40,000 nucleotides of DNA from Bordetella sp. H567 (GTDB lineage: Bacteria > Pseudomonadota > Gammaproteobacteria > Burkholderiales > Burkholderiaceae_B): NCBI RefSeq assembly GCF_001704295.1, contig NZ_CP012334.1:716084-756083 (forward strand), given 5' to 3'. Of the stretch, positions 9,352-25,189 are shown piece by piece. Numbering within the stretch: position 1 is the first letter of the stretch; every line of letters starts with the position of its first letter. The notes under the pieces were generated by a model. It searched no databases and had not been told where the DNA came from. It was given only the letters and a program-made list of their open reading frames with translations. A program made the translations under genes and the position numbers.

Positions 9352-9359
9352 TGGTCAGG

Positions 9360-9563: not shown

Positions 9564-10039
9564 CAGATCAACTCCACCGTGCTGCGGGAAGCGCCCACCA
9601 GCTGCCGCGCGGCCCAGCGGCCATTGCGGCGGTGCTCGTCGGGGGAGCATTGCTGCAGCTCGCTACGCTTGATACCGGACGCCGTGGTGTCATAGTCCAC
9701 GTAGCGTTCGATCAGGTCGGCGGTGGCGAACGAATAGATGGCCCGCCGATACAGGTAGACCAGGCGGCTGACGCCGTCGACCTGGGGCGCGCTCACGTCT
9801 TCGAGTTTCGTCTTGCCTTCCGCCGCGCGCGCCGTCGCCCAGGCTTGCACGGGGCCGTCCATGTTCACTTCCAGGATGGCGCCGGCCAGGGCGTGGTGCA
9901 GCCGTTCGTCGGTGACCGTGCCATCCAGCCGCATGGTCTGGCGCGCGGTGGCGAGATCGAAGTCCGGCCACCAACCATCATTCGTGATGGTCGCCGCGCT
10001 GGGTTCGTTCGTCGGAGGGGCGGATGCGAGGAATGGCAT
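9563..10039 (-). CDS. gpL: Head completion/stabilisation protein (P2 gpL)
   Basis: 158 aa, called from synteny between M and X and gpL-like sequence. Confidence 0.8.
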   Translation of the reverse strand: MPFLASAPPTNEPSAATITNDGWWPDFDLATARQTMRLDGTVTDERLHHALAGAILEVNMDGPVQAWATARAAEGKTKLEDVSAPQVDGVSRLVYLYRRAIYSFATADLIERYVDYDTTASGIKRSELQQCSPDEHRRNGRWAARQLVGASRSTVELI

Positions 10040-10125
10040 GGTCGAATAAGACGGCGGTGGGGGGGGCGTCCGGGATCAATCAAGAACCTTCAGCCCCCCG
10101 CCGCCGAGCGTGCGGGGGCACTCGG

Positions 10126-10833
10126 TTAGCCGGGGTTTCCGGCGTGATTCTTCAGGCGACGTTGCAGACCTTCGATTTCCTTCTTGACGCCGATCTTCGG
10201 GAACAGTTGCATGGCACGCTCGAAGGCTTCGAGGGCGCGCTGCGCATACAGCAGGGTCGTTTCCGTCTCGGTGACGCCAGGGCAGCTCAGGGACAGCAGG
10301 GCGGCGCCCATGACCTTGAACAGCTTTGCGCGGGCCTGGTCGGGAGCATCGAATTTCTGGGTGAGGCGATCCGTCGCGTCGGCGATCTCGAAAACGGTCT
10401 TCGGATCCTCAACCTTGCCGATCAGCAGGGCGTCGGCCACCTCGTCGATAAGCGCGGTATGTAGGTCGCGCTTGTATCGTTGTGGCAGCTTGATGCCATG
10501 CGCCAAGAGGTAAGCGCCAATCTCCAGGGCACGAGCGAACCGGCCAGCGTCGATGTTCCAGATGCACAGGGTAGAGAGAACTTCGTCCTGTGCGCCTGAG
10601 CCGCCCAGCAGCACGCCGTCGATGTAATCGTCGTACTCGGGCACCAGCGTGGCCTTGGCCTCGATCTTGCGCTCGGTGGACTGAATGTCCTTGAGCCGGC
10701 GCATGTCGGTGATCAGCTTGGCCAGGAACAGATCGTAGATCGCGCCCGAGGCGACCACCTGGCCGGCCTCGGTTGCGGCGCCGCGCGCCCGGGCCAGCTC
10801 GCGCTCGCGATGACGTTGAGCAGGGCTGACCAT
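10126..10833 (-). CDS. gpM: Terminase endonuclease (small) subunit (P2 gpM)
   Basis: 235 aa, located directly after the capsid gene (1-nt gap). Confidence 0.8.
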   Translation of the reverse strand: MVSPAQRHRERELARARGAATEAGQVVASGAIYDLFLAKLITDMRRLKDIQSTERKIEAKATLVPEYDDYIDGVLLGGSGAQDEVLSTLCIWNIDAGRFARALEIGAYLLAHGIKLPQRYKRDLHTALIDEVADALLIGKVEDPKTVFEIADATDRLTQKFDAPDQARAKLFKVMGAALLSLSCPGVTETETTLLYAQRALEAFERAMQLFPKIGVKKEIEGLQRRLKNHAGNPG

Positions 10834-10834
10834 G

Positions 10835-11851
10835 TTAGGCGCCCGTCACGATTTCGATGTTCTCGGCCAGCGCGACAAAGCCGTAGTCTTCGACCACATA
10901 GTCGTCGTTGGACGATTCGTAGAACTCGACGCGATCGCGTTTCGCCGCGTCTTGGATATGAGTGCGGCGCGCGCCCTCCTGCCAGTACAGCGACAGGTTT
11001 TCGAACGCGGTGAGCAGCACCTTCCCCGGCGGGAAGTACGGCACGCTGAATGCCGGCCGGCCGCCCAGGCGCTTGGTGCTCATGATGACGTCGGCCGCGA
11101 CCTTCTCCGTCGCCTTGTCGCTGGTGTTGACGATCGGGAAGTACTTGTCGTGCAGCAGCCCGCTGCCGACGATGGCAACGAGGCGCGGATCTTCCTGATA
11201 CCAGGGGTCCAGCAGCTGGACCATGTCGAACACCAGCGCGTCCAGGTTGCCGTAGTCGCCGCCCGGGCCGACCTCGATCTTGCCGGAGGCCGCGACCACT
11301 TCCTTCATGACGTGCGCCGGCGCCCGCTCCCGACACTTTTGCAGCCAGCCCTTGTTGACGTCCTGCAGGAGCGGGTTCGCGTCGAGGTCGGTCGTGGCGG
11401 CGATGCTGGTGCCGTTGAAGCCGATCATGATGCGGTCCAGCTGCTGGCGCCGGATACGCGCGTTCGTGATGCGCACCTGGAAGTCCGGGAATTTCGCCCA
11501 GGAGTCCAGCAGCGCGTAGGGGATGTGCGTGTCGAAGTTGGTCTTTTGGCAGTCGTAGCCGTCCGTGTTCAGCGTCGTCAGATCGCGGGTGCTGCGCTCG
11601 GCGCCGCCGGACGTATTCGTGCGGCCGGAGGCGGGGCCGGAAACGCCCAAGCCGATTTTTTCGCCGGCCTTGTCCTGGACGCCGATGACGTTGATGCGCG
11701 TGAGGAAATCGCTGCTTTCCTGGATTCGGGTTTCGAGGGTCTGCTGCACAGACGGAGCGGCGCTGAATTTGACCGACGCGTCGGCGATGCCGTTCAGTTC
11801 GGCTTGGCGGGCCAGGTAGCCCGAAAAGAGGGTGCGGGTAGCGTTACGCAT
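10835..11851 (-). CDS. gpN: Major capsid protein (P2 gpN)
   Basis: 338 aa. MRNATRTLFSGYLARQAELNGI...IQESSDFLTRINVIGVQDKAGEKIGLGV closely parallels P2 gpN. Confidence 0.92.
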   Translation of the reverse strand: MRNATRTLFSGYLARQAELNGIADASVKFSAAPSVQQTLETRIQESSDFLTRINVIGVQDKAGEKIGLGVSGPASGRTNTSGGAERSTRDLTTLNTDGYDCQKTNFDTHIPYALLDSWAKFPDFQVRITNARIRRQQLDRIMIGFNGTSIAATTDLDANPLLQDVNKGWLQKCRERAPAHVMKEVVAASGKIEVGPGGDYGNLDALVFDMVQLLDPWYQEDPRLVAIVGSGLLHDKYFPIVNTSDKATEKVAADVIMSTKRLGGRPAFSVPYFPPGKVLLTAFENLSLYWQEGARRTHIQDAAKRDRVEFYESSNDDYVVEDYGFVALAENIEIVTGA

Positions 11852-11900
11852 GGAAGCGGTAGTCCTGTGTGGTGGCTATGGGCGTGAACTGTCGTTTCGG

Positions 11901-12722
11901 TCAGCAGTCGGCGCGCTGGGACGCGTCGGTGCCAGTGGCCGGTTTCAGCGGCGTAAACGAGCGCGGGGTGTTGTCCAGCTGTTCCTTCAGCTGGTTAAAG
12001 GCTTCGGCCGACACGTACTTGGAGGCGAACGACTCGAAGCGGTCGGCCATTTCCTTGAGCAGCTTGTCCCCCGCGGTGAACTTCGCCGTGACGTGCTCGG
12101 CCAGTTGGGTGACCGCTTCTTCGACCTGCTTGAAATGGTCGGCATCGTTGGCCTTTTCCCGGCTCAGCAGTTCACGCAGGCGCTGGAACAGCTTCGGCGT
12201 TTTATCGTCGGCGGGCGGCTCTTCGTCCGCGAAGTCGAAGACCGTTTCGAGGGCCGACGAGAAGAGGCAATCCGCGTTGCGTTTGCGGCTCGCGTAGGGG
12301 TGCTTGTCGGGGTTCTGCGCGGCGAATGCCAGAATGTCCGTGCCCAGGCTTGCCGGCGTGTCGGTAACGGCCAGGCCGGTCAGGTAGGCTTTGCCGCTCT
12401 TGGCGAAGTTGGGATCCACCTCGATCGAGGTGTAGATCTTCTGCCGCGACTTCGACAGCGCCACCAGTTCGGGCGTGGGGTCGATCTGGACCTGCAGCTG
12501 CAGCTTGCCGTCGGTCTCGATGGTCTGGGCGGCGGTCACGTCGCCATACGCGCGGAAAATGCTGTCGGGAATGAGGCTGATGAGGTGTTCGACCGAGACG
12601 CGCGCGCCGTAGGTCTTCTGGCTGTAGGTTTGGGCGATCTGTTCCAGCCAGGCGCGTTCGATGACGCGCCCGTCAGTGGTTTGGCCTTCGGTGGCAACGG
12701 TGAACCATTTCGGGGTCGGCAT
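11901..12722 (-). CDS. gpO: Capsid scaffolding protein (P2 gpO)
   Basis: MPTPKWFTVATEGQTTDGRVIERAWLEQIAQTY...VEHL...FRAYGDV parallels P2 gpO. The track ORF start at 12758 is a TTG and looks less likely. Confidence 0.85.
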   Translation of the reverse strand: MPTPKWFTVATEGQTTDGRVIERAWLEQIAQTYSQKTYGARVSVEHLISLIPDSIFRAYGDVTAAQTIETDGKLQLQVQIDPTPELVALSKSRQKIYTSIEVDPNFAKSGKAYLTGLAVTDTPASLGTDILAFAAQNPDKHPYASRKRNADCLFSSALETVFDFADEEPPADDKTPKLFQRLRELLSREKANDADHFKQVEEAVTQLAEHVTAKFTAGDKLLKEMADRFESFASKYVSAEAFNQLKEQLDNTPRSFTPLKPATGTDASQRADC

Positions 12723-12790
12723 TGTGGTCTCGCGGGTGGTTGTTCGGGATGTCTGCAAGGAGTGATGACATGGTGGCCCCGCTGCCGCGA

Positions 12791-12823
12791 CTGATCAACG
12801 CGCCCAAAGCGTAGCGTTATCAG
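12791..12823. promoter_or_regulatory. Imperfect dyad in the divergent O/P late-promoter region (candidate late-activator site)
   Basis: CTGATCAACGC-N12-GCGTTATCAG, inverted arms with one extra base, centred about 68 nt upstream of the P start codon. Confidence 0.3.
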
Positions 12824-12874
12824 TCACATACGGCAGTCTCGCGCGCGCGTGAAAAATTCCTTCAGGATGGCGGC

Positions 12875-14629
12875 ATGTTAGAAATTGCCAACGATCTTGA
12901 GCCGCGGCGCGTGGCGCGCACCCTGTATTTCCAGGGCTGGCGCGTGTCATCTATCGCGCGGCATCTGGGTGAGCGGCGTACCACGGTGCAGAGCTGGAAG
13001 GCACGCGACAAGTGGGATGCTGCGTCCGTTGTTGAAAAGGTCGAGACCGCGCTCGAAGGGCGCCTCGTGCAGCTGATCGCCAAGGACAAGAAGGAAGGCG
13101 GCGACTACAAAGAGATCGACCTGCTCACGCGGCAGATCACCCAGATGGCTCGTGTTCGGCGCTATGACGCCGGCGGTAACGAAGCGGACCTGAACCCCAA
13201 CCTCGAACGGCGCAATGCTGGCCCGAAGACCAAGCCGACCAAGAACGCCTATAGCGATGCGCAGAAGGACAAGCTTTTCCAGGCGTTCAAGGCTTCCTTG
13301 TTCGATTACCAGAAAGTCTGGTACCGGAATGGCGATCAACGCACTCGCATGATACTGAAGTCGCGCCAGATCGGTGCGACTTGCTACTTTGCCCGAGAGG
13401 CGTTTATCGACGCCCTGACCACCGGGCGCAACCAAATTTTCATGTCTGCGTCGAAGGCGCAAGCCCATGTTTTCAAGCAGTACATCATCCAGTTCGCGCG
13501 TGAAGAAGCGGACCTTGACCTGAAGGGCGATCCGATCGTCCTGCCGAATGGCGCGACCCTGTATTTCCTAGGCACCAATTACCGCACGGCGCAGAGCTAT
13601 CACGGCAACCTCTATCTGGACGAGGTGTTTTGGATCCCGCGCTTCACCGAGCTGTACAAGGTCGCCAGCGGCATGGCGATGCACAAGCAATGGCGCAAGA
13701 CCTATTTTTCGACGCCGTCGAGCATGGCGCACGAAGCCTACCCGCTTTGGTCGGGTGCCGCGTTCAACAAGCGGCGGGCGAAGAACGATCAGAAGATCAT
13801 CGACGTTTCACACACTGCGCTGGCCGAGGGGCGGCTGTGCAACGACAAGATCTGGCGTCAGATCGTCACCATCCTGGACGCGGAGAAGGGCGGCTGCAAC
13901 CTGTTCGATATCGACGAGCTGCGCGACTTCGAATACAGCCCGGATCAGTTCGATAACTTGCTGATGTGCAACTTCATCGACGACACGGCTTCCGTGTTCC
14001 CGCTGTCGATGTTGCAGGGCTGCATGGTGGACAGCTGGATCGCATGGCGTGATGTGCTGCCGTTGATGACGCGGCCGTTCGGGTTCAACCCGGTATGGAT
14101 CGGCTATGACCCTTCGCACACTGGCGACTCCGCGGGGTGCGTGGTGATGGCGCCACCGGCCACGCCAGGCGGAAAATTTCGCATTCTGGAGCGCCATCAA
14201 TGGCGCGGGCTGACTTTCGCGCAGCAGGCCGAGAAGATCGAACAGTTGACGAAACGGTACACGGTCGCCCACATCGGCATTGACGTTACGGGTATCGGCC
14301 AAGGCGTTTACCAACTGGTCAAGCAGTTTTTTCCTGCCGCGCGGGCAATCACGTATTCCGTCGAGGTGAAGACGCGCCTCGTTATGAAGGCTGTCGAGGT
14401 GATGCGGACCAAGCGCCTGGAATTCGACGCGGGATGGACCGATATCGCGCAGTCCTTCATGGCGATTCGCAAGACGATGACGGCCAGCGGGCGGAGCGTG
14501 ACGTACGCGGCCGGCAGGTCGGAAGAGGTGAGTCATGCGGACCTGGCCTGGGCCTGCATGCACGCAATTGATAACGAGCCCTTGGAAGGCGAAACCCAGA
14601 TGAACCGGAACGTAGTGGAGATTTTTTGA
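12875..14629 (+). CDS. gpP: Terminase large (ATPase) subunit (P2 gpP)
   Basis: 584 aa. N terminus RRVARTLYFQGWRVSSIARHLGERRTTVQSWKARDKWD is gpP-like. Confidence 0.92.
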   Translation: MLEIANDLEPRRVARTLYFQGWRVSSIARHLGERRTTVQSWKARDKWDAASVVEKVETALEGRLVQLIAKDKKEGGDYKEIDLLTRQITQMARVRRYDAGGNEADLNPNLERRNAGPKTKPTKNAYSDAQKDKLFQAFKASLFDYQKVWYRNGDQRTRMILKSRQIGATCYFAREAFIDALTTGRNQIFMSASKAQAHVFKQYIIQFAREEADLDLKGDPIVLPNGATLYFLGTNYRTAQSYHGNLYLDEVFWIPRFTELYKVASGMAMHKQWRKTYFSTPSSMAHEAYPLWSGAAFNKRRAKNDQKIIDVSHTALAEGRLCNDKIWRQIVTILDAEKGGCNLFDIDELRDFEYSPDQFDNLLMCNFIDDTASVFPLSMLQGCMVDSWIAWRDVLPLMTRPFGFNPVWIGYDPSHTGDSAGCVVMAPPATPGGKFRILERHQWRGLTFAQQAEKIEQLTKRYTVAHIGIDVTGIGQGVYQLVKQFFPAARAITYSVEVKTRLVMKAVEVMRTKRLEFDAGWTDIAQSFMAIRKTMTASGRSVTYAAGRSEEVSHADLAWACMHAIDNEPLEGETQMNRNVVEIF

Positions 14630-15687
14630 TGAAAGCTACCCAGCGCGCAGCGAATAAAATGGACGTGCCGCAGGCGCCAGCACATTCGACAAGCGTTCAG
14701 GCATTTTCGTTCGGCGAGCCCGAGCCAGTGCTGAATCGGCGCGAGATCCTGGACTATATCGAATGCTGGAATAACGGCCGATGGTACGAGCCGCCGGTCA
14801 GCTTCGCCGGCCTCGCGAAGTCGTTCCGGGCCAGCACGCACCACAGTTCCGCGATCTACTTTAAGGCCAATATCCTGGCTTCGACGCTCCGGCCGAATCC
14901 CTACTTGAGCCGTCTCACGATGAAGAAGCTGGCCGTCGATTTCCAGATCTTCGGCAATGCTTACCCGGTGCGCTCTCTGAGCATGACCGGCAAGCTTCTT
15001 TCCGTTGAATCGCGGCTCGCCAAGTACGTGCGCCGTGGCTTGGACATGGACACCTATTATTGGGTGCCGGCCTACAGCCAAGAGCAGCAGTTCGCGCCCG
15101 ACGAGATCTTCCAGCTGATCGACCCGGACGTGAATCAGGAGGTCTATGGGCTCCCGGAGTATCTCAGCACGCTCCAGTCGGCCTGGCTGAACGAATCGGC
15201 GACGCTGTTCCGCCGGAAGTACTACAACAACGGCAGCCACGCCGGGTTCATTCTGTACATGAACGATGCGGCCCAGAATCAGGAGGACATCGACAACGTG
15301 CGCGAGGCGATGAAAAACGCGAAGGGGCCGGGCAACTTCCGGAACCTGTTTATCTACTCGCCCAACGGCAAGAAGGACGGCATCCAATTGATCCCGGTCA
15401 GCGAGGTCGCGGCGAAGGATGATTTTTTCAACATCAAGAACGTCACGCGCGACGACATCCTTGCGGCGCATCGCGTTCCGCCACAGCTTATGGGCATTGT
15501 GCCGAGCAACACCGGCGGGTTTGGCGCAATCATTCCCGCGGCTCAGGTGTTCGCCACGAATGAGATCGAACCATTGCAGGCCAGATTCATGGAGATCAAT
15601 GATTGGCTAGGGGTAAAGGCGATCGCCTTCGATCCTTATCGCGTGGACGTTACAGTATCGAGTGGCGAGAAGCCATCGGTCACCTAA
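14626..15687 (+). CDS. gpQ: Portal protein (P2 gpQ)
   Basis: 353 aa. ATGA overlap with P, giving the P-then-Q order of P2. Confidence 0.9.
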   Translation: MMKATQRAANKMDVPQAPAHSTSVQAFSFGEPEPVLNRREILDYIECWNNGRWYEPPVSFAGLAKSFRASTHHSSAIYFKANILASTLRPNPYLSRLTMKKLAVDFQIFGNAYPVRSLSMTGKLLSVESRLAKYVRRGLDMDTYYWVPAYSQEQQFAPDEIFQLIDPDVNQEVYGLPEYLSTLQSAWLNESATLFRRKYYNNGSHAGFILYMNDAAQNQEDIDNVREAMKNAKGPGNFRNLFIYSPNGKKDGIQLIPVSEVAAKDDFFNIKNVTRDDILAAHRVPPQLMGIVPSNTGGFGAIIPAAQVFATNEIEPLQARFMEINDWLGVKAIAFDPYRVDVTVSSGEKPSVT

Positions 15688-16673
15688 ACCCGCGCGGCGC
15701 GTTCACCGGTGACTTTCCGCGCCGGCTTATCTTCCCGCACGCCCTGGAACGATGCCTGCCGCAGAATGCCGCCATCCGTGATGGTGGTGTAGGCCACTTC
15801 CACGACGAGTTCCGGCCGCACCCAGTGCATGGTGGGCTTGGAATTGCCGCCCCACCGATCGGACAGGACCGGCCGCTCCGTGAACGGCATCTCGTCCGTC
15901 GCCAACGGCGCCAAGCGCTTCATGAGCATGTCGATGGTGCCGCCGCTGAAACCCGTGCCGACTCGGCCGGAATAGCGCAGCTTGTCGCCCTCACGCAGCC
16001 CGACGAGCAGGGCGCCGAAGCCCGTGCGCGATCCGCCCGGGTTTGTCCAGCCACCGACGACGAATTCCTGACGCGGCCGGCATTTCAACTTGATCCAGGT
16101 ATCCGTGCGGCCGGCGCGGTACGGCGCGTCCTTGCGCTTGCCTATCAGCCCTTCCAGCTGCCGCCGGCAGGCTTCAGCCAGCAGCTCGGCCGCGTGATCG
16201 CCCGTATCGACGTCGGCCACCACGCTGCGGACGATGGCTGCGTTCTCCGGCACGCCGGCCAGCACCGCCTGCAGGGCCTTGGCACGCTCCGAAAAAGGGT
16301 AGTCGCGTAGGTCCTTCCCGTTCCAGTACGGGACGTCGAACGCGACGAACTGCACCTGCTTCGCTACGCTCTTGTCCATCGCGTTTTGCAGGCGCTGGAA
16401 GCTGCTGATCCCGTATTCATCCATGACGACGATCTCGCCGTCCAGCCAGCCGGTGCCGGTGCCCAGCTCCAGCGCTCGGATGCGCGCGACCAGGTCGGCG
16501 AGCTTCGGCGTCCAGTCCTTTGCCTCGCGGCTGTAGAAGCGCGCGCCCGCGTCGTCGATCCGGCACAGCATCCGATAGCCGTCGAACTTGACCTCGTAGG
16601 CGTAGCCGCCGGAGGGCGGCTCCTTCACCAGCGTGGCCAGTGGCGGCTTGACGAAGTCGGGCAGGGCGGACAT
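15684..16673 (-). CDS. ATP-dependent DNA ligase, stand-alone LigD/LigC-type ligase domain
   Basis: 329 aa. Nucleotidyltransferase motifs EVKFDGYRM (I, KxDGxR), LDGEIVV (III), FVAFDVPY (IIIa), EGLIGKR (IV), WIKLK (V), followed by an OB-fold-length tail. Confidence 0.88.
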   Translation of the reverse strand: MSALPDFVKPPLATLVKEPPSGGYAYEVKFDGYRMLCRIDDAGARFYSREAKDWTPKLADLVARIRALELGTGTGWLDGEIVVMDEYGISSFQRLQNAMDKSVAKQVQFVAFDVPYWNGKDLRDYPFSERAKALQAVLAGVPENAAIVRSVVADVDTGDHAAELLAEACRRQLEGLIGKRKDAPYRAGRTDTWIKLKCRPRQEFVVGGWTNPGGSRTGFGALLVGLREGDKLRYSGRVGTGFSGGTIDMLMKRLAPLATDEMPFTERPVLSDRWGGNSKPTMHWVRPELVVEVAYTTITDGGILRQASFQGVREDKPARKVTGERAARV

Positions 16674-16675
16674 GG

Positions 16676-16855
16676 CTATTTCTTGAGCGCCGCGCGGACC
16701 TTCTCCGCCGAATTACTGCCGGCGTCCTTCACTGCCTGGCGCAGCTGCTCCGGGCTGCAGCCCAGCTCCTTGGTCCAGTACCGGACCTCATGGTCCTGCT
16801 CCAAGCTGATACGGGCACGGTCGCGGGGCCCACGGTCGTTTAGATTGTCCGACAT
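16676..16855 (-). CDS. DUF3606 domain protein
   Basis: 59 aa from MSDNLNDRGPRDRARISLEQDHEVRYWTKELGCSPEQLRQAVKDAG. Strong SD: AGGAGcaaatcATG. Confidence 0.75.
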   Translation of the reverse strand: MSDNLNDRGPRDRARISLEQDHEVRYWTKELGCSPEQLRQAVKDAGSNSAEKVRAALKK

Positions 16856-16933
16856 GATTTGCTCCTGGGTGAATGCGGCAATGCCGCAGAGCAAAGTGCG
16901 TGCCGTCGCGGCCGCGGCGGTTCCCGGCGCGCC

Positions 16934-17323
16934 TCACCGCCGCCGCGGCTTACGCTTTGCCGCCCCGATCTCAGCCGCGCGGGCCTGCCATCGTTCAGGC
17001 GGCCCGACGAATCGGTCGACCATGCTGCTGCCCAGGACCTGGGGAATCTCCAGGTGTGGACGCCCACCGGGCTCGGCCTCCAGATCCCGCCGAAACTCTT
17101 CCCAGATCGAATCGAGGCAGCTGCCCGGCCGAGGGAAGCGGTCGCGCAGCTCTCTCGCACGCTGGACGATCTCGCGCAGGCGATCGACCTCGCCAAGCAG
17201 GACGGCCATGTCCCGCTCCACCGCCGCGCCGTCGAACATGCATGGCGCGCGGGCCGGCGTCACCTCGTAGCGTAGGCGGATGCGGTGCAGGTCGTCATGC
17301 GTGAGCGGCGGCCGGGCGGGCAT
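16934..17323 (-). CDS. Hypothetical protein (129 aa)
   Basis: Open frame in operon position upstream of DUF3606/ligase. No recognisable motif, no clear SD, start uncertain. Confidence 0.45.
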   Translation of the reverse strand: MPARPPLTHDDLHRIRLRYEVTPARAPCMFDGAAVERDMAVLLGEVDRLREIVQRARELRDRFPRPGSCLDSIWEEFRRDLEAEPGGRPHLEIPQVLGSSMVDRFVGPPERWQARAAEIGAAKRKPRRR

Positions 17324-17338
17324 GGTCGGGTAGAGAGG

Positions 17339-17354
17339 CTGTATGGATATCCAG
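17339..17354. promoter_or_regulatory. LexA (SOS) box-like palindrome
   Basis: CTGTATGGATATCCAG has the CTG-N10-CAG form and differs from CTGT-N8-ACAG at one position. Lies 15 nt upstream of the 129-aa ORF start. Confidence 0.4.
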
Positions 17355-17361
17355 TGTATCG

Positions 17362-18084
17362 CTACTCCAGGGCGAACGGCTGCTGGCCCTGCTCAACCGG
17401 TTCTATGGCGTCGGGCCGCTCGTAGCGATAATTGCCGACTTCCTGGCGCACGCGGTGCCAGGTGAAGGCGGATTCCGGCAGCGCATGCGCGAGTATTTCC
17501 CGGGCGCGCGTCAGCGTGGTCGCGGGGTCGACCCATTCGACGGCCAACTCCGGCGGCAGGGCCACCGGGCGCCGGTCATGCATGTCCACCATGCCGCCCT
17601 GGGTATCGTTCGTCACGATGGCCATGCCGTGTTCCTTGCCGTGCTCGCGGCCAGGGCGCCAGGCGCACACCGCGGCTAAGAACAGCGGTTCGTCGTTGGC
17701 GTGGTGGATGAAGTAGGGCACCTTCGGCCCCTTGGGATCGTCGGTCAACCACTTCCATTCGTACCAGCCATCGGCCGGCACGATCGCGCGGCCGCCTTCC
17801 TTCAGCAGCCAATTCCACGGCCATTTGCCCGCGGCGATGGTTTCGGTCTTGGCGTTGCTGATCGGCGCGCGGCGCCAGTCGCTGGGCTTGTAACCCCAGT
17901 AGATGCGCTCCACCTCCAGCTGCCCGCCGCTGAACCGATGGAAGGCCATGGGCCGTGCGCCCGGCGGGATGTTGTAGCGCGGGCCGACAGGGTCGGGCGG
18001 GAACAGCTCGCCCGCTCTGGGCGCCCTGATGATCTTTTCCAGGTAATCGTCCGGGTTGTTCTTCTGCACGATACGGCCACACAT
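17362..18084 (-). CDS. SOS response-associated peptidase (SRAP/YedK family)
   Basis: Start at MCGRIVQK (catalytic Cys2). The 344-aa track ORF is an upstream over-extension. Confidence 0.88.
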   Translation of the reverse strand: MCGRIVQKNNPDDYLEKIIRAPRAGELFPPDPVGPRYNIPPGARPMAFHRFSGGQLEVERIYWGYKPSDWRRAPISNAKTETIAAGKWPWNWLLKEGGRAIVPADGWYEWKWLTDDPKGPKVPYFIHHANDEPLFLAAVCAWRPGREHGKEHGMAIVTNDTQGGMVDMHDRRPVALPPELAVEWVDPATTLTRAREILAHALPESAFTWHRVRQEVGNYRYERPDAIEPVEQGQQPFALE

Positions 18085-18439
18085 GAGGCGCTCCGATTCG
18101 AAGGGGTACCTGGACATGGTATCGCAGCCGACAGCCCAACAGCGGGCCCGTATTACGGCCCCAGGGGCATCGGCGCTCGGGTGCGGCGCCGGCCCGCGGG
18201 CCGCGGCCCATCCCAGCCCGGCGCGCGCCGTCATCCCCCCACCTCGCCCGCTCGCCAAACGGAGCGCTTTTGACTCAGACCTGCGTCGTCCCGCCAGCCC
18301 GGCGCCATGCGGCGCTTTCGGGCATTGAGGCTCGCCTATTGGTGACGCAAAAAGACGCAGTCTGAGCCCGGCTCCGACCATGGATCGCCGGGGCATCGGC
18401 GGTGTACTCTCAGCGTTTTACAAATTGACCGGGTGACCC

Positions 18440-18985
18440 ATGAAGGACGAGGTGCAAGGGTTTTTCAAGATGCTGGCCACGTCGCCTAAGACGGTCTCCC
18501 TTGCAGCCGGGGTCGCCTGCATGACGCCCTATCTGTTGCGCGAGAAGAGTGGCTTGCCGGCGACGTATACCGGCTTTTTCTCCGTCGCCGCGATTTTCTT
18601 CCTGACCTTGTTCGCTGTGCTTGTTGTCCGTGCTTGTACTGACGGTCTGCGGGAATCTGGACGGGCGAAGAAAGCGCGCAAGGCCCGCTTCGAGGGGCTG
18701 GCGCTTGAAGAGCTTGAGGTGCTGGCTGCGTTTGTGATTCAGCAGGTGGACTCCCTGTTTTATCCCAGCGATCTGGTTGTCATCTCACGACTCTGGCGAC
18801 GCGAAATGTTGGTGTGCCTGCACACGCCTGACCTGATACAGCGATTCGAGATCGCCGACTGGGCACGGAAGGAACTCGAACTCGACCCGTCATTGCTTAA
18901 GGGGACGGACGGCGCTCACGCTGTGTCGGTCTCTACCGACTATTTCGATCGAAAGAAGAACGGCGAGTACGCCGCCCGTCGGTGA
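18440..18985 (+). CDS. Membrane protein resembling superinfection exclusion protein B (SieB family)
   Basis: 181 aa. Two N-terminal TM helices, a KKARKARF linker, then LALEELEVLAAFVIQQVDSLFYPSDLVVISRLWRREMLV, which matches my memory of the SieB-family pattern. Confidence 0.5.
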   Translation: MKDEVQGFFKMLATSPKTVSLAAGVACMTPYLLREKSGLPATYTGFFSVAAIFFLTLFAVLVVRACTDGLRESGRAKKARKARFEGLALEELEVLAAFVIQQVDSLFYPSDLVVISRLWRREMLVCLHTPDLIQRFEIADWARKELELDPSLLKGTDGAHAVSVSTDYFDRKKNGEYAARR

Positions 18986-19062
18986 GCAAATCCTCGACAA
19001 TCAGCTTTCTCTCAAACGTCGCGGCCAGGCCGGTGAGGCACCCTTCCCGAGAGACAAGGCAA

Positions 19063-19701
19063 TTAAGCCCTGGGGGCGGCCGTTATCCGTTTGGCCGCGT
19101 GAAGTGCAAGTACGTTGCACACAAAACGGTTGCCACTGTTGCGAGAGGCCAGCGCCGTCAAGATGTACTGCACTGCAAATAGCACAAGGCTCGCCTTTAC
19201 TATCAAGGACGTCGCGTCGAAACACCATAGAACGAAGGGAACGACAATGGACAGCAGCAGCGATAAACTTGCGGCGTCCCGCCACAGCAAGTATGACTTG
19301 TGTGCCCCAACTACCCTGGTATCCGACTCGACACGTTTGTACAGCCTGTACCACGTGGCATTTTGCTCTTTGGGATCGACGGGAAGTTTTCCCACGTGCC
19401 GTTGTAAAGCACTCATGTCGATGCGTGGGTCTGACGGCCCATGCGTTGTGAATGCGGCGTGCCCGGGTAACGCATTCTCGACCTTCCAGAAGACCAGGAC
19501 GGCCTTGAGGTTGGGCGAGGCAACCTCGACCAACAAAAGTATTGCTACCGGAAGCAAAGTGACAACACTGCCTTGTACAACCCGCGAAATGGTCATCGCC
19601 TCCGCGATGTGTGGATACGCAAAGGAAAGCGCTATCGCCATGTCTAAAGCGGCCAACGATACGAGCAGCTTTAAGTTTGAATTCTTTAGGCTGTCTTTCA
19701 T
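19063..19701 (-). CDS. Multi-pass membrane protein (about 4 TM), unknown family
   Basis: 212 aa. Hydrophobic helices at the N terminus (x2) and C terminus (x2) flank a soluble segment, ENALPGHAAFTTHGPSDPRIDMSALQRHVGKLPVDPKEQNATWYRLYK. ATGA overlap with the upstream MBL gene. Confidence 0.7.
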   Translation of the reverse strand: MKDSLKNSNLKLLVSLAALDMAIALSFAYPHIAEAMTISRVVQGSVVTLLPVAILLLVEVASPNLKAVLVFWKVENALPGHAAFTTHGPSDPRIDMSALQRHVGKLPVDPKEQNATWYRLYKRVESDTRVVGAHKSYLLWRDAASLSLLLSIVVPFVLWCFDATSLIVKASLVLFAVQYILTALASRNSGNRFVCNVLALHAAKRITAAPRA

Positions 19702-20555
19702 CCGTTGTACTCGGTCGAGATCGTAAACGCACCGGCGGAATCTACATCAAACTGGATCCATCCATCGCGCCGTGTAGTTAGGACGTGGCGGCGTTTTCCA
19801 GTGGTGGCAACATAAACTCCGGCCGGGTGCCTATCTATCACGCGCTGTCGGTACGTCTGGGTCATGCGTTGCGTATCGTGATGAATGGCCTTGTCCGACA
19901 TAACGATCGCCCTTGGCGAGCAATAGTCAAAGAGTTCCGCGCAATAGCCGTTTTCGCGGCCATGGTGTGAAGCCACCAGTACGTCAACGTCACCGAGGTC
20001 TGCTCGAAAGGCCGGCCGTTCCAAGAGCGCCCTCCAGCCAGCCACTTCAAGATCTCCGGGGAAAAGGATTGAAAAACCGCAGTACTTGAGGAACACCACC
20101 AAGCTGAGATCGTTTGTAGTCTTAAACTCCGGGTAACGGTTGAAGTAGTAGGTCGCCGTGATGCCGCCCATTCCTTCATTAAAGGGCAGTGCCACGGGCG
20201 CGGTGTACCTTCCATGCATGGACAAGAATTCGTCGATGTCATCGGTCGGCGTGCCGCCAGCTTGCTTGATCGAGCGAAGGGCGTCAGCGGGCGGGTGCGG
20301 ATTCCGAATCAGTGTCTCGACCGATATGCCCGCACGGCGTAAACCGGCTAGATCACTCATATGGTCTTGGTCCGCGTTCGTGATGAACAGGTAATCGACA
20401 TTCGTCCGTTTGAGTGTGCCGCGGATATAGTCGCTGGGCCGCCAGTCGGGTGTGCATCCAGAGTCGATCATGGCTAGACGGCCCCCGTAGGTGCCAATTT
20501 GGTGCTGAACCATAGCGCAGGCGCCGTGCTCTACATCCCAGACTCTCAATCGCAT
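19698..20555 (-). CDS. Metallo-beta-lactamase-fold protein, ComEC/Rec2-like
   Basis: MRLRVWDVEHGACAMV...LAMIDSG, FITNADQDHMSDL (degenerate HxHxDH) and VLVASHHGRENGY. An alternative TTG start lies at 20618. Confidence 0.75.
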   Translation of the reverse strand: MRLRVWDVEHGACAMVQHQIGTYGGRLAMIDSGCTPDWRPSDYIRGTLKRTNVDYLFITNADQDHMSDLAGLRRAGISVETLIRNPHPPADALRSIKQAGGTPTDDIDEFLSMHGRYTAPVALPFNEGMGGITATYYFNRYPEFKTTNDLSLVVFLKYCGFSILFPGDLEVAGWRALLERPAFRADLGDVDVLVASHHGRENGYCAELFDYCSPRAIVMSDKAIHHDTQRMTQTYRQRVIDRHPAGVYVATTGKRRHVLTTRRDGWIQFDVDSAGAFTISTEYNG

Positions 20556-20857
20556 CTGACCGACCACGAACTCTCTCCCATCGCAAATTTGTACTAGATG
20601 CGTCGAGAATTTACACAAAGCGGCGTTTTTTCGCTGGACCGAGCTACAGCCGCGATCCTATAAACGTGCAGACTTGTTGTGATATTTGTTGTTATTTATG
20701 GTTTACGAACAACGGAGAGCGAGCAAAATTGACGTTCTTCGGCCTGTATTCGAAGGCCCCTCTGTCCGCCAAGAACATTCCTCAGGTTGCCCCGCGTTGC
20801 CCCACAACCCGCATGAACATTGGTTCTGCGGGTTTTTGTTTGCCCCGTGTTGCCTCA

Positions 20858-21118
20858 CGTTGCCCCTATGTGACCCATTTGGGCGATGGGGGCGGCCTGT
20901 CGCTGTTGGCAAAGACTGAGGGGGCTAAGCACTGGTGGTACCAGTAGCGCTATCACGGCAAGCAGCAGACGATGGCGCTGGGCGTTTATCCCGCGGTCTC
21001 GGCCCGCTCGGCGCGTGAGAAGCACGCGGTTGCTCCTGAACAGCTGGCCAGCGGCCTTAATCCCACAGCGGAAAAGCGACTGGCGAAACTCAAGGCGACC
21101 GAGGACGTGCGCAAGTAG
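20858..21118 (+). pseudogene. P4-type (DUF4102) integrase, N-terminal fragment only
   Basis: CPYVTHLGDGGGLSLLAKTEGAKHWWYQ*RYHGKQQTMALGVYPAVSARSAREKHAV...NPTAEKR matches the N-terminal arm of P4-like integrases. In-frame stop at 20945-20947; truncated after about 85 codons. Confidence 0.65.
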
Positions 21119-21350
21119 CCCAGGTCCTGTGCAACCCGGGTCACGGGCTACCCTCCACTCAAACGTTCGATGGCTGTGAGTAGACAGACCTGCTGGCGCC
21201 ACGCGGCAGGCTCGCGCCGGTCTGCCCACGGAAAAGCCGGGTGAATGTCCGCCGGCTCATTCCCACTTCGGCAGCCATCACGTCGAGCCCGATGGCAATC
21301 GAAGGCTCATCCCGTCCTTGTTCTACACGGCTCGTTCGGTGACGCCCACT
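21119..21350 (-). pseudogene. AraC/XylS-type HTH remnant, frameshifted and truncated
   Basis: Minus strand reads ...EPSIAIGLDVMAAEVGMSRRTFTRLFRGQTGA. After a 1-nt shift it continues PAAWRQQVCLLTAIERLSGG*PVTRVAQDLGY, then stops abruptly where the integrase stub ends. Confidence 0.45.
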
Positions 21351-21400
21351 CGTTCGAATCGAGCGAACCTTGGTTGTCCCCGATGAGTTTAGCTACGTGT

Positions 21401-21730
21401 TCATGGACGTGGGGTACGGCTTTCGTAACCACGAACTGGTTCGAGCCATTCGAACCGCCGCTCGGACTTCAGCAGCTTCTTGAGCTTAGCCTCGTAGTCG
21501 ACACGATAGTCCTTCTTCAGATGATGCTCTTGAAAGTATTGCGCACTGCATGCCCAAGTTTCGTAGAGGACCAGCGTGTCGGGATCTTCCGCCGACCGGT
21601 GCAGGTAGGTGTTGATGAAGTCCGGTTCGTGTGACATTGCGTCGAGTACCTTGATGAGGCTTGTATAAAGTTCATCGCGTACCTCCGGTTTGCCGGGCAG
21701 GTGGACGATAAACGAGATGCTCTCGCTCAT
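21401..21730 (-). CDS. Antibiotic-biosynthesis-monooxygenase (ABM) domain protein / putative quinol monooxygenase
   Basis: 109 aa. ISFIVHLPGKPEVRDELYTSLIKVLDAMSHEPDFINTYLHRSAEDPDTLVLYETW is an ABM-type pattern. SD is AGGAG. Confidence 0.75.
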   Translation of the reverse strand: MSESISFIVHLPGKPEVRDELYTSLIKVLDAMSHEPDFINTYLHRSAEDPDTLVLYETWACSAQYFQEHHLKKDYRVDYEAKLKKLLKSERRFEWLEPVRGYESRTPRP

Positions 21731-22027: not shown

Positions 22028-22146
22028 GGTTATTTTCTCCGGCCGTCTTCCGCGATGAAGTAATCGATCAACTCGCCCACACGGGACGAATGGTGCGAGT
22101 TAGAGCATTGGAGAGGCTTGACGGGGAAGAGGCCGGTGCCGGCCTC

Positions 22147-23148
22147 TCAATGTAGCGGCTTAATGTTGCGCATCCGCAGAATTCCGTTCCAACGGTCAGT
22201 CTCTTCGACGATGAGTTCCTTGAACGCGGCCGGCGTGTTGGGTTGCAGCGGCGTAGCAAAGGCCTGTTGCGCCATGGCGTCGTGCAGTGCCGGGTCCATC
22301 AGCGCTGCATTGATGGATCGGTTGAGTTTTGCGATCACATGGGGCGGTGTGCCAGCCGGCGCGACCAAGCCGCTCCAGTCCCCAAGCTCGAGCCCCGACA
22401 GTTCCGACACGCCGGCTTCATCCAGCGTCGGCACATGAGCCATGGCCGGTATCCGTCGAGGCGACATCGCGACGATCGGCCTGAGTTTTCCCGCCCGGAT
22501 GTGGGGCAGCGTCCCGGCAACAGGCGCGATATAGATGTCTATCCGACCGCCCATTACGTCCGTTAGCGCCTGCGCGCCACCGCTGTATGGCACATGCCGG
22601 ATGTCGAGATCCATTTCCTGTTGCAGCAGTTCACACAACAGATGCGCGGTTGTCCCTGTCCCGGGGGACGCGCAACTCAGCGCCCCTGGATACGTACGGG
22701 CGATCCTTACCACATCCTGTACGGTAGCGATCGGGCTGTGCGTGGCGCTCACCATGACGAACGGTAGTCTGGCGACCAGCCCAACCGGGACCAGATCGCG
22801 TGCGAAGTCATACTTCATGGTTCCATACATCGATTTGTGTATGGTGTTCGGCCGTCCTCCAAGGAAGACCGTATAGCCGTCCGGCGTCGCGCGGGCGACA
22901 TATTCCGCGCCGATGTTGCCGCCGGCGCCAGGTTTGTACTGGACGATCACTTTTTTTCCGAGGGCTTCGCCCATGGAATGCGCGAGGAGCCGGGCCAGGG
23001 CATCGGCACTGCCGCCGGGTGGGAAACCAATCACCAGCGCAACCGGACGCTGCGGGTATACCGCTTCCTGGTCGGCCGCCATAGCTCCCCATGGCGCAGC
23101 CGCGGTCATCAAGGCAATGGCTGCGAGGTCCTGCTTGAGATGCTGCAT
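22147..23148 (-). CDS. Bug-family (TctC-like) tripartite tricarboxylate transporter substrate-binding protein, copy 1
   Basis: 333 aa with a signal peptide. YPQRPVALVIGFPPGGSADALARLL...QYKPGAGGNIGAEYVARATPDGYT is the Bug family signature. Confidence 0.9.
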   Translation of the reverse strand: MQHLKQDLAAIALMTAAAPWGAMAADQEAVYPQRPVALVIGFPPGGSADALARLLAHSMGEALGKKVIVQYKPGAGGNIGAEYVARATPDGYTVFLGGRPNTIHKSMYGTMKYDFARDLVPVGLVARLPFVMVSATHSPIATVQDVVRIARTYPGALSCASPGTGTTAHLLCELLQQEMDLDIRHVPYSGGAQALTDVMGGRIDIYIAPVAGTLPHIRAGKLRPIVAMSPRRIPAMAHVPTLDEAGVSELSGLELGDWSGLVAPAGTPPHVIAKLNRSINAALMDPALHDAMAQQAFATPLQPNTPAAFKELIVEETDRWNGILRMRNIKPLH

Positions 23149-23176
23149 CTTGTCTCCGCTCTACTCTTATTTGCAA

Positions 23177-23211
23177 CATGCCGGCATGAACCCGCGAAGG
23201 TTGCCGGCATG
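23177..23211. promoter_or_regulatory. Paired palindromic motif upstream of Bug copy 1
   Basis: CATGCCGGCATG (perfect 12-bp palindrome, 23177-23188) and TGCCGGCATG (23202-23211). The same pair is conserved upstream of copy 2. Confidence 0.35.
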
Positions 23212-23499
23212 ATTTCGGGAAGATGATCCACCCTGAATCGGGCGACCGTGGGTAACGGCGTGCAGTCACGCGTTCCTGGCGCGGAAAGCGGGGGGCGATA
23301 CCTTGCCGTTTCGTGCGGGCATCGGCATGTGAGCGCGCACACGGTGGCGCAGGCTTACCAGCAGGACTGCGCAATCAAAAAATAACGGCGCGTAGATGAC
23401 TACGCGCCGTACAGCCCCAGATGCCGGGAGCATATCCTCGCAAGAGGGATGTATCACCGAGAGCTGTGTTGACGGACGCGGAGTGCAGCGTCCCGTCTA

Positions 23500-23988
23500 C
23501 TAGGCCAGGTTCGTATAGACCCTGACTTCCACGTTATGTTTGTTGCGGAAATCGTCCCTGGGGCGGCCGCACCGCTTTGCGCCGGTTTCAATATCCTTTG
23601 TGACCCCCGCGCCTTGCAAATAGGTGTCCAGGAAATGTTCCGCCGCGGCCGCGCTTCTCTTGGCGCCTTCATTGACGTACTTATAGCAACCGTCCATCTC
23701 GATCTTCGTATATTTGCCTGGATCCTTTTTGATCTCGCTGCCCAGTTCGGTCAGGGTGTTCCGGACGGCATCTCTCAGCTTTCCCGTTTCAGCGACGTTC
23801 TTCAGTTCTATCGTTTGCGTCGCGGTGTCGCGCTTTGCGCGTTCCTGATGCGACTCGGATGACTTTGGGGGTTGGTAAGCCGCGAAGGCTTCCTGCGCCG
23901 AGGTATGTGGGGTGGGGGAAGTCTGCGAACTCGGGGCGGAGTATGCGTCGAAACGAGCCGGATTGACGTTGGTTACTTGCATAGTCAT
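23500..23988 (-). CDS. Hypothetical protein (162 aa) with an S/T/P/Q-rich N terminus
   Basis: Lower-GC ORF with a perfect SD (AGGAGGTT). The spacing favours the second Met (MQVTNVN..., 23982). No recognisable domain. Confidence 0.6.
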   Translation of the reverse strand: MTMQVTNVNPARFDAYSAPSSQTSPTPHTSAQEAFAAYQPPKSSESHQERAKRDTATQTIELKNVAETGKLRDAVRNTLTELGSEIKKDPGKYTKIEMDGCYKYVNEGAKRSAAAAEHFLDTYLQGAGVTKDIETGAKRCGRPRDDFRNKHNVEVRVYTNLA

Positions 23989-24187
23989 AACCTCCTACGA
24001 TGGGCCACTGAATGCGGAAGGGACATCCCTGCGCGCAAGGCGCAGGTTCTTCCAACCATGCGGTGTCCGCAGCATGCGTAGAGAAGTTCCGGACTCAATT
24101 ACCGTTCGTCCCTTGGCCCGTCCGAGTTCGTTCGGCGCGGCAGCATCGCCGAAGCACGTCACCAGCGTAGCGTCCGGTGATGGCTCT

Positions 24188-25189
24188 TCAATGTAGCGGC
24201 TTGATATTGCGCATCCGCAGGATTCCGTTCCAGCGGTCGGTCTCTTCGGCGATGAGTTCCTTGAATGCAGCCGGCGTGTTGGGTTGCAGCGGCGTAGCGA
24301 AAGCTTGCTGCGCCATGGCGTCGTGCAGTGCGGGCTCCATCAGCGCTGCGTTGATGGATCGGTTGAGTTTTGCGATCACATGCGGCGGCGTGCCGGCGGG
24401 CACCAGTAGACCGCTCCAGGCTCCAAGCTCAAGTCCTGACAGTTCCGACACGCCGGCTTCTTCCAGCGTGGGCACATCGGGTATTGCGGGTGTCCGTAGA
24501 GAAGACATGGTGACGAGCGGCCTGAGCCTGCCTGCGCGGATGTGGGGCAGCCCCTCGGCAACGGTTGCGATATATAGGTCTATCCGACCGCCCATCACGT
24601 CTGTCAACGCTTGCGCGCCACCGCTGTAAGGAACATGCTGCATGTCGATGCCCACTTCCTGTTGGAGCAATTCGCAAAGCAGATGGGACGTTGTTCCCAT
24701 GCCGGAAGAGGCACAACTGAGCCCCCCGGGATACGTTCGGGCCAGCCTCACGACATCGTGTACGGAGGCGATGGGGGCATGGGTGCTGGTCACCATGACG
24801 AAGGGTATCGTTGCGACCAAACCCACCGGGACCAGATCGCGCGCAAAGTCATACTTCATGGTCCCGTACATCGTTTTGTGTATGGTGTTCGGTCTTCCAC
24901 CAAGAAAGACTGTATAGCCATCCGGTGTGGCGCGCGCGACATATTCCGCACCGATATTGCCGCCGGCGCCAGGCTTGTACTGGATGATCATTTTTTGGCC
25001 AAGCGCCTCGCCAACGTGGGCCGCGAGGAGCCGGGCCAGCGTATCCGCACTACCGCCGGCCGGGTAGCCAATTACCAGGGTAACCGGGCGCTGCGGGTAT
25101 ACGGCTTCCTGGTCGGATGCCATCGCCCACCACGGGGCGATGGCGCTTGCCAGCACGACGGCGGCGAGGTTTCTCTTGAGAAGGTGCAT
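24188..25189 (-). CDS. Bug-family (TctC-like) substrate-binding protein, copy 2
   Basis: 333 aa, colinear with copy 1. The last ~70 aa are almost identical. Confidence 0.9.
   Translation of the reverse strand: MHLLKRNLAAVVLASAIAPWWAMASDQEAVYPQRPVTLVIGYPAGGSADTLARLLAAHVGEALGQKMIIQYKPGAGGNIGAEYVARATPDGYTVFLGGRPNTIHKTMYGTMKYDFARDLVPVGLVATIPFVMVTSTHAPIASVHDVVRLARTYPGGLSCASSGMGTTSHLLCELLQQEVGIDMQHVPYSGGAQALTDVMGGRIDLYIATVAEGLPHIRAGRLRPLVTMSSLRTPAIPDVPTLEEAGVSELSGLELGAWSGLLVPAGTPPHVIAKLNRSINAALMEPALHDAMAQQAFATPLQPNTPAAFKELIAEETDRWNGILRMRNIKPLH

Follow-up and report, generated by a model that had tools for sequence, protein, structure and literature searches.

Metallo-beta-lactamase proteins in anti-phage defence

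The ComEC-like metallo-beta-lactamase (MBL) proteins of the defence systems Hachiman, Avs, Lamassu, DRT and Canu were shown in a 2025 study to be DNases, which are inactive until they are cleaved by a protease fused to the sensor (PMC12799240). A second arrangement, in which an MBL gene is combined with a gene for an E2-E1-JAB protein, is the '6a' operon of Iyer, Burroughs & Aravind 2006 (PMC1779556). Here, we describe a pair of overlapping genes located in a stretch of 40,000 nucleotides (nt) from Bordetella sp. H567 (contig NZ_CP012334.1, positions 716,084 to 756,083), termed the window below. The first gene encodes MBL-S, a ComEC-type MBL-fold hydrolase, and the second an inner-membrane protein with four transmembrane (TM) helices, designated the 4-TM or TM protein. 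An earlier inspection of this DNA, the original prediction, had suggested an anti-phage module. We give an even chance to the reading that the pair is a stand-alone anti-phage (or anti-mobile-DNA) module, in which MBL-S would be the nuclease effector and the 4-TM protein the sensor or anchor. The evidence comprises the fold of the enzyme, the co-conservation of the two genes, the operons in which they occur and purifying selection on both. Tightly conserved, horizontally mobile and in many other bacteria joined to the validated 6A-MBL system, the two genes very probably constitute a phage-defence module that is new to the literature, in which no description of an MBL plus 4-TM pair was found.

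The pair would work most like the defence modules built on ComEC-like nucleases, with an orphan membrane protein as a new partner. In many loci, homologous pairs are physically linked to 6A-MBL. Two papers cite 6A-MBL as experimentally confirmed in Pseudomonas aeruginosa, among the defences against jumbo phages. NCBIfam (June 2026) contains two models for it, NF058523 ('anti-phage 6A-MBL system cap2_3 protein') and NF058524 ('MBL-fold protein'). Its validation in Pseudomonas aeruginosa is reportedly the work of van den Berg et al. in 2024. Both MBL proteins are ComEC-like and end with Gly; this C-terminal Gly as a feature of 6A-MBL is our own deduction and not a published criterion, and the window protein has it. 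In contrast to 6A-MBL, MBL-S is shorter than the 6A-MBL enzyme (~380 amino acids, aa) and belongs to a different MBL subfamily, and a 4-TM protein is not among the named components of that system. The window does not encode cap2_3, as judged by tblastn with a homologous protein (from locus L019) and by a comparison of NF058523 with the window proteins. MBL-S does not match NF058524 at E <= 0.01. Since both defining genes are absent, the window pair does not belong to 6A-MBL. The protease-gated pro-nucleases (HamM, Avs1a, the MBLs of Lamassu and DRT, CanC; PMC12799240) are similar in belonging to the ComEC-like clade, their models give weak matches with MBL-S, and the TM protein has a distant relative that carries a fused CHAT protease and is encoded beside an MBL gene. 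They differ from the window pair, in which the partner is a membrane protein and the structural model of the MBL shows no clear pair of disordered gating insertions but only short low-confidence stretches. No protease domain was detected in the flanking genes scanned (14626-21730).

The two genes and their junction

The positions of both genes are listed in Table 1. At their junction, the letters TAC AAC GGA TGA contain the beginning of ATG AAA GAC in the +1 register, and the resulting ATGA overlap implies translational coupling. The original prediction had described two minus-strand genes with this overlap in the GC minimum of the window; the sequence and the GC profile (0.551 at 19001-20000, about 0.65 elsewhere) agree with it. 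A start of the first gene with the ATG at 20555, where its range ends, is possible, but the GTG at 20567 is most probably the genuine one, as the N-terminus then obtained, MVGQMRLRVWDV (MVGQMRLRVW), fits the MPGQM or MVGQM of the homologues. A gene call of 289 aa on an identical contig agrees with the GTG start, and the beginning MVGQM is common to MBL-S and its orthologue in Bordetella genomosp. 9. Residue numbers of MBL-S are nevertheless counted from ATG 20555. A scan for consensus promoters upstream of the pair yielded nothing above expectation, and a terminator scan was uninformative.

MBL-S, a ComEC-type enzyme with a conserved C-terminal glycine

MBL-S scores 21.8 bits against Pfam Lactamase_B, just under the threshold of 22.7. 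A search of the PDB with the family profile found the ComEC nuclease domain (E 4e-6). The AlphaFold (AF2) model of MBL-S has a predicted local distance difference test score (pLDDT) of 86.7; values below 50 occur only at residues 199-202, and one low block is situated at about 221-230. The top Foldseek match of this model is the ComEC MBL domain 9ic4 (E 5e-12, TM-score 0.65-0.70), followed by the phosphorylcholine esterase Pce. The ComEC/Rec2-like fold assigned in the original prediction is thus corroborated. MBL-S shares with ComEC the motifs H/N-x-D-x-D-H, GD and HHG. In contrast to ComEC/Rec2, it is a separate, soluble protein without a signal peptide, scores 14.9 bits against TIGR00361 (cut-off 190), lacks a Competence or OB domain in Pfam searches and has a patchy, mobile distribution instead of belonging to core competence.

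The motifs VWDVEHGACAMV, MIDSG, NADQDH and VASHHGRENGY are all present in MBL-S and invariant or nearly so in its family. Motif 2 comprises N60-A-D62-Q-D64-H65, motif 4 GD168 and motif 5 H197-H198. Across 21 diverse homologues, N60, D62, D64, H65, D168, H197, H198, D221 and K222 are invariant. Two His ligands had been regarded as replaced, with altered or lost catalysis as a suggested consequence. This does not hold for a comparison with ComEC, whose motif 2 is H-x-D-x-D-H (THPDADH in 9ic4): MBL-S differs from it in the first His alone, which is an invariant Asn. Because an Asp in the second position is normal in the ComEC clade and the Asn is invariant, NADQDH is a family signature and not a sign of decay, and the idea that it marks a dead enzyme was rejected on the same grounds. 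Where the His of motif 3 would be expected, N139 is the sole invariant polar residue. If it is assigned correctly, metal site 1 would consist of Asn/Asp/Asn (N60/D62/N139), which would suggest a preference for another metal or substrate rather than decay.

MBL-S ends with TEYNG-stop. The ending T-E-x-x-G-stop was found in 62 of the 63 genome loci with a TM gene downstream. Since the terminal Gly is also kept in seven loci of a close clade without a following TM gene, it is not forced by the gene overlap. In a non-redundant metagenome set, 40 of 45 MBL-S proteins end with Gly and three with Ala. The 6A-MBL enzyme terminates with ..PPRAG or with Gly plus two residues. By analogy to the CD-NTases that are processed by Cap2/Cap3 in type II CBASS (anti-phage signalling that relies on cyclic oligonucleotides), both MBL-S and the 6A-MBL enzyme have the appearance of proteins subject to E1-type adenylation and conjugation. 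In the window pair, the terminal Gly is puzzling: there is no linked cap2_3, the two-gene clades are old (see below), and the nearest orthologue, that of Bordetella genomosp. 9, lacks the Gly (..TTERN).

A PADLOC search had been proposed for the region. In PADLOC-DB v2, MBL-S matches PDC-M48B over nearly its full length (PDLC04674, E 4.2e-58; residues 22-290 of the 306-aa open reading frame, ORF, versus positions 1-257 of the 270 of the profile). The LmuA, RTasMBL and Avs1a MBL models gave weak matches. Other MBL subfamilies that are paired with the TM family match PDLC04673, 04675 and 04676. The correspondence with PDC-M48 is half a match: component B is present, but PDC-M48A matched neither the TM, SieB-like, SRAP and ligase proteins of the window nor 20 partner proteins of related loci. 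PDC-M48 itself is a prediction, and no paper mentioning it was found in the literature.

The membrane protein

The second protein comprises 212 aa. As originally predicted, it has two TM helices at each end and a soluble loop between them: its hydrophobic segments are located at about 10-30, 44-66, 143-163 and 166-186, and the helical loop has ~75 aa. According to the positive-inside rule, the positively charged loop is cytoplasmic. The structural model is all-helical and confident (pLDDT 91.9). The most conserved residues reside in the loop: LPG..AF, D91, R93, QN..WY and L138..RD142. The TM protein yielded no Pfam, NCBIfam or PADLOC match, in the latter case even at E = 10, and Foldseek searches of its model against PDB and BFVD found nothing significant. 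Matches to folds of the MotA/PomA/ExbB/TolQ type were rejected as evidence (best E 1, TM-score <= 0.30).

By exhaustive search with a hidden Markov model, the TM family comprises 1468 clusters at 50% identity, nearly all of them of about 210 aa. One member is a CHAT-protease fusion encoded 5' of a 6A-MBL enzyme. A relationship with the small TM partners of the loci L033, L072, L066, L074 and L078 was tried as well. As hhalign probabilities were all below 4%, no homology to these proteins is claimed. They still share the 2TM-loop-2TM arrangement, and their W..P and Y-x-x-R-D/N motifs are in similar positions. Kiwa (KwaA/KwaB) and Zorya (ZorAB with ZorC/D) combine a membrane sensor with a cytoplasmic DNA-targeting effector and resemble the pair in logic only: a small multi-TM protein is encoded together with a cytoplasmic effector that would act on DNA. 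In contrast to this similarity in design, no homology to them is detectable, and the likeness of the 2TM-loop-2TM protein to MotA-type folds is the non-significant one mentioned above.

Co-conservation, selection and distribution

The original prediction had called for a survey of co-occurrence. From both sides, strong co-conservation was found. For the MBL side, one genome per species was scanned with the MBL alignment, which yielded 80 loci. The TM family is encoded in 66 of them, in 63 directly downstream, and 59 of these 63 as well as most metagenome loci have kept the GGATGA junction. For the TM side, metagenomes were scanned with an alignment of closer TM sequences, again resulting in 80 loci. 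MBL-S is encoded directly upstream in 62 of them, another ComEC-like MBL is adjacent in 6, and 7 comprise 6A-MBL enzyme, E2-E1-JAB (cap2_3) and TM genes without MBL-S. In four loci the flanks were too short, and a single locus had room on both sides and no MBL. This means, a ComEC-like MBL gene is present in the operon of the TM gene in 75 of 76 informative metagenome loci. The pairing of MBL-S and TM protein is not due to chance. The TM family also pairs with other subfamilies of ComEC-like MBLs (318, 323, 359 and 363 aa) in reverse gene order (L046, L064, L088-L093), and distant relatives of MBL-S (40-43% identity) are accompanied by other small 2TM-loop-2TM proteins.

The nearest relatives of MBL-S and the TM protein, with 80% and 76% identity, are encoded in Bordetella genomosp. 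9. There, a remnant composed of the pair, SRAP, portal and terminase genes adjoins dnaX-ybaB-recR. The ratios of nonsynonymous to synonymous substitution rates (dN/dS) for these orthologues amount to 0.089 for MBL-S and 0.075 for the TM protein, and are approximate because dS is saturated (1.3-1.7). Both genes are maintained under purifying selection while the prophage around them erodes.

Prophage hotspots are not the usual home of the pair. Among 50,697 phage GenBank records only two weak matches, both from Firmicutes phages, were obtained for MBL-S and none for the TM protein, and 2.9 million viral contigs contain merely 3 and 2 loci for the two proteins. Typical phage cargo was therefore rejected as a description of the pair.

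Association with 6A-MBL operons and other defence genes

About half of the homologous pairs are preceded, within one operon, by the two genes of 6A-MBL, which are those of the '6a' operon type. In these four-gene loci, a gene for an MBL protein of ~385 aa precedes that for a 748-aa protein composed of Prok-E2_A, ThiF and Prok-JAB domains, and MBL-S starts 1-4 nt after the stop codon of the latter. The E2-E1-JAB and MBL proteins of one such locus (L019, Fulvimonas soli) score 714 and 400 bits against NF058523 and NF058524, above the cut-offs (220 for NF058524). On a tree of 121 MBL-S sequences, the two-gene form, found in 44 loci, is separated from the four-gene form, found in 42, by no more than about three changes of state. 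Owing to this small number of changes, the two-gene form can be considered old and self-sufficient. The window pair is of this stand-alone form, which makes up old, separate clades.

Other loci combine the pair with a variety of defence genes. HmaA and HmaB enclose it in L074, it follows a type IIG enzyme in L078 (E 6.6e-285), and type IIG genes flank it in L041. In L046 it adjoins AbiEi/AbiEii, and in L088-L091 it comes after a type I restriction-modification system that is regulated by BrxR and contains an Abi_C insert. Plasmids of Xanthomonas and Acinetobacter carry it next to WYL regulators, and in Burkholderia glumae it is present on a conjugative plasmid. In addition, islands with P4-type integrases contain it at their ends, and it occurs in regions resembling integrative and conjugative elements (ICEs) and in prophage remnants. 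The ICE and plasmid regions carry DUF932, RadC and relaxase genes. The mobile and defence setting assumed in the original prediction is supported for P4-type islands, ICE-like regions, plasmids and the neighbourhood of Hma, restriction-modification, AbiE and BrxR/WYL genes, but not as a strong general enrichment (see below).

Near-identical four-gene operons composed of 6A-MBL, MBL-S and TM genes were found in records assigned to Ectothiorhodospira, Stutzerimonas, Pseudomonadaceae, Sinimarinibacterium and to metagenome-assembled genomes (MAGs) of Burkholderiales and Thermoflexus (L006, L007, L008, L011, L012 and L014; about 6500-11550 where complete). They adjoin conjugation-type genes. Their presence across genera indicates either recent horizontal spread or bin contamination in MAGs.

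Several variants of the operons were observed. In L099, the gene at 5194-6978 (protein P0373) encodes the above-mentioned fusion, in which the CHAT (caspase-like) protease is located N-terminally of the 4-TM domain. Downstream of it, a 6A-MBL enzyme ending with ..APRAG and cap2_3 are encoded. L099 is possibly a membrane-bound protease variant of the 6A-MBL system. In L066 (4629-7254), MBL-S is accompanied by a TM protein of 260 aa and a SIR2-like protein. L010 (9989-12968) encodes, besides MBL-S, another MBL (E 1.7e-139 with PDLC04673, a PDC-M48B model) and a third protein, which was read as a patatin-like phospholipase from its GGGVRA motif alone, with neither confirmation by a family scan nor a PADLOC match. 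Both three-gene variants suggest effector swapping around an MBL core.

Proposed mechanism and alternative explanations

According to the explanation that we favour, MBL-S would be a cytoplasmic metal-dependent phosphodiesterase of the ComEC type, most likely a DNase, and serve as the effector. We infer nuclease activity from the ComEC MBL domain, which is closest in both sequence and fold, from the weak LmuA, RTasMBL and Avs1a matches and from the homologous DNases. The ATGA coupling would keep MBL-S and the 4-TM protein at a fixed ratio. In a putative complex of both, the cytoplasmic helical domain of the 4-TM protein might hold, gate or activate MBL-S at the inner membrane. The 4-TM protein would act as infection sensor or anchor and the nuclease would inflict the damage. 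This direction of signalling is suggested by the CHAT-TM fusion together with the published design of a protease fused to the sensor, both of which place the TM domain on the sensing side. The original prediction had envisaged the opposite, a membrane effector coupled to a nuclease-fold sensor, against which the fusion argues. In other bacteria, the pair is an in-operon accessory of 6A-MBL (Cap2/Cap3 fusion plus MBL), and the window would contain its autonomous form. A more far-reaching proposal regards the pair as a novel and autonomous system against phages, in which the 2TM-loop-2TM family (about 1,500 clusters) would constitute a new class of membrane infection sensors directly controlling ComEC-like nucleases, and in which the nuclease would at the same time carry a ubiquitin-like C-terminal Gly through which Cap2/Cap3-type enzymes could conjugate it covalently; this is tentative and rather doubtful.

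An anti-phage module is favoured by the co-conservation, the defence contexts, the PDC-M48B match and the link to 6A-MBL. Several points weigh against the sensor-nuclease model. Neither a domain nor a relative in fold could be recognised for the TM protein, and its presumed role as a sensor has been derived from one fusion and by analogy. Metal site 1 of MBL-S, which appears to be N60/D62/(N139), deviates from the His/Asp/His of ComEC, so that its substrate could be other than DNA. The model offers no explanation for the conserved C-terminal Gly, and the second component of the PADLOC prediction, PDC-M48A, was not identified beside the pair. Moreover, the enrichment in islands is modest: integrase and defence genes are a minority among the 135 ORFs located no farther than 3 kb from 35 two-gene loci, which include four integrases, two Arm-DNA-binding proteins, two methylase/type IIG, two Fic and two RmrA proteins and two transposases, the rest being housekeeping.

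An alternative is classic abortive infection, as in the original prediction, in which the 4-TM protein would be the killing effector that depolarizes or perforates the membrane and MBL-S a sensor or regulator, e.g. a phosphodiesterase responsible for making or removing a small-molecule signal, or a protein sensing phage nucleic acid. Small multi-TM proteins serve as effectors in several known systems (PMC9122126), and the His-poor altered metal site could suit a non-DNA substrate. Furthermore, in the seven metagenome loci without MBL-S and on plasmids of B. glumae and X. citri, the TM family joins 6A-MBL operons as an exchangeable effector would. We nevertheless regard this explanation as unlikely, since all characterised defence MBLs of the ComEC-like clade are effector nucleases, the CHAT-TM fusion 5' of an MBL enzyme assigns the TM domain to the side of sensing or transduction, and conservation of the TM protein is strongest in its cytoplasmic loop and not in its helices. 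The terminal Gly would find an explanation if the pair were not autonomous, but depended on a Cap2/Cap3-type E2-E1-JAB enzyme encoded elsewhere in the genome that adenylates the terminal Gly of MBL-S and conjugates it to a target, as happens to CD-NTases in type II CBASS. This agrees with the persistence of the Gly in loci with and without a TM gene and in metagenomes, with the Gly end of the 6A-MBL enzyme and with the position of MBL-S immediately behind cap2_3 in the four-gene operons. It is, however, distinctly improbable for the window, which lacks such a gene: the old two-gene clades, with about three switches, have persisted without a linked cap2_3, and the Gly-less orthologue of Bordetella genomosp. 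9 is under the same purifying selection.

A function for mobile elements instead of defence, be it entry exclusion, DNA processing at the membrane by a split ComEC-like apparatus or an addiction module, has still less to commend it and is very unlikely. The MBL domain of ComEC acts on DNA at the membrane (names of NCBIfam and PDB entries; Silale 2021, as cited in another paper), and the pair is housed in ICE and plasmid regions with relaxase genes. Yet MBL-S lacks a signal peptide, the TM protein bears no relation to the channel domain of ComEC, and repeated insertion into defence operons together with the link to a validated anti-phage system fits defence better. That the two genes are functionless here, as inert cargo left behind by a prophage or island in decay, is scarcely credible. 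The flanking integrase is a pseudogene stub and the P2-like prophage lacks genes for tail sheath, tail tube and replication, but both ORFs are intact with all residues that are invariant in their families, and dN/dS is below 0.1 in comparison with an orthologous pair that survives in the even more eroded remnant of Bordetella genomosp. 9.

If the sensor-nuclease module does defend, it would be a compact two-gene system widespread in Proteobacteria and beyond, provide a function for a large family of orphan membrane proteins and show the role of the extra genes in many 6A-MBL operons. Current annotation is blind to the pair: PADLOC recognizes one gene, Pfam and NCBIfam neither. This would also bear on how bacterial E1-E2-JAB enzymes regulate effectors other than CD-NTases. 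If the Gly is indeed conjugated, an effector nuclease would be a protein modifier, and 'cGASylation' would extend to a second class of enzymes. Concrete handles for mutagenesis are offered by the metal site, which is invariant and rich in Asn/Asp, and by the terminal Gly.

Surroundings of the pair

Table 1. Features of the window with their positions. Strands are given where assigned.
Feature	Position	Strand	Remarks
Defective P2-like prophage	1-15687		integrase, tail fibre, baseplate, lysis, capsid, terminase and portal present
Prophage integrase	98-1108		directly abuts tail-fibre and baseplate genes
Terminase	12875-14629		
P2-type portal	14626-15687		
ATP-dependent DNA ligase	15684-16673		stand-alone; cargo on the cos side of portal
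DUF3606 protein	16676-16894		cargo
phrog_32761 protein	16934-17323		cargo
SRAP/YedK-type ORF	17362-18396		104-aa N-terminal extension probably spurious; domain from MCGR, residue 105
SieB-like gene (superinfection exclusion)	18440-18985		convergent with TM gene; 26.3 bits vs Pfam cut-off of 26
TM gene	19063-19701	-	212-aa inner-membrane protein, 2TM-loop-2TM
ATGA stop/start overlap	19698-19701	-	GGA-TGA / ATG
MBL-S gene	19698-20567	-	cytoplasmic hydrolase of 289 aa with ComEC-type MBL fold; starts probably with GTG 20567
MBL-S, alternative start	20555	-	ATG, 285 aa
MBL-S ORF, TTG-extended	19698-20618	-	306 aa
Putative ribosome-binding site	20568-20585	-	purine-rich GGGAGAGAG, ~7 nt 5' of GTG
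P4-type integrase fragment	~20860-21120	+	N-terminal (Arm-type) part; in-frame TAG
Bug/TctC-family gene, copy 1	22147-23148		periplasmic binding protein
Unannotated ORF	23500-23988		162 aa, between the Bug/TctC copies
Bug/TctC-family gene, copy 2	24188-25189		periplasmic binding protein

All neighbours named in the original prediction, the SieB-like gene, the stub of a P4-type integrase and a P2-type portal gene a few kb away, are present. The pair is situated 3.4 kb from the portal gene on its cos side, the same side as in Bordetella genomosp. 9, where the SRAP gene has also been retained beside it. In the P2-like prophage, no gene for tail sheath, tail tube, tape measure, repressor or gpA-type replication protein was seen. 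The protein encoded by the SieB-like gene has no PADLOC or NCBIfam match. Identical contigs contain this gene, whereas the Bordetella genomosp. 9 locus lacks it, and it therefore does not belong to the pair. Over 76 aa, the integrase fragment shows 36% identity with a complete P4-type integrase (E 4e-14). As the whole window is devoid of tRNA genes, the site of original attachment is not visible.

The cos-proximal defence hotspot of P2 was defined in E. coli as the interval between gpA and gpQ. As seen from the portal gene, the pair lies towards cos; gpA is lacking in the truncated prophage, and the stub of a P4-type integrase follows instead. The enterobacterial P2/P4 hotspot framing of the original prediction was rejected, as the host is Bordetella-like. 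A 'hydrolase + multi-TM' system from such hotspots had also been mentioned. The system in question (Rousset et al. 2022) resembles the pair in consisting of two genes, for a hydrolase and a membrane protein, next to a P4-type integrase in a hotspot. In contrast to MBL-S, its hydrolase is HAD-like and has a different fold; no PADLOC model of such a system matches the pair, and the host clade differs.

Farther away, the region 22128-25189 contains a tandem duplication of the Bug/TctC-family genes. The repeats are spaced by 2041 nt and are 87% identical over a 300-nt seed.

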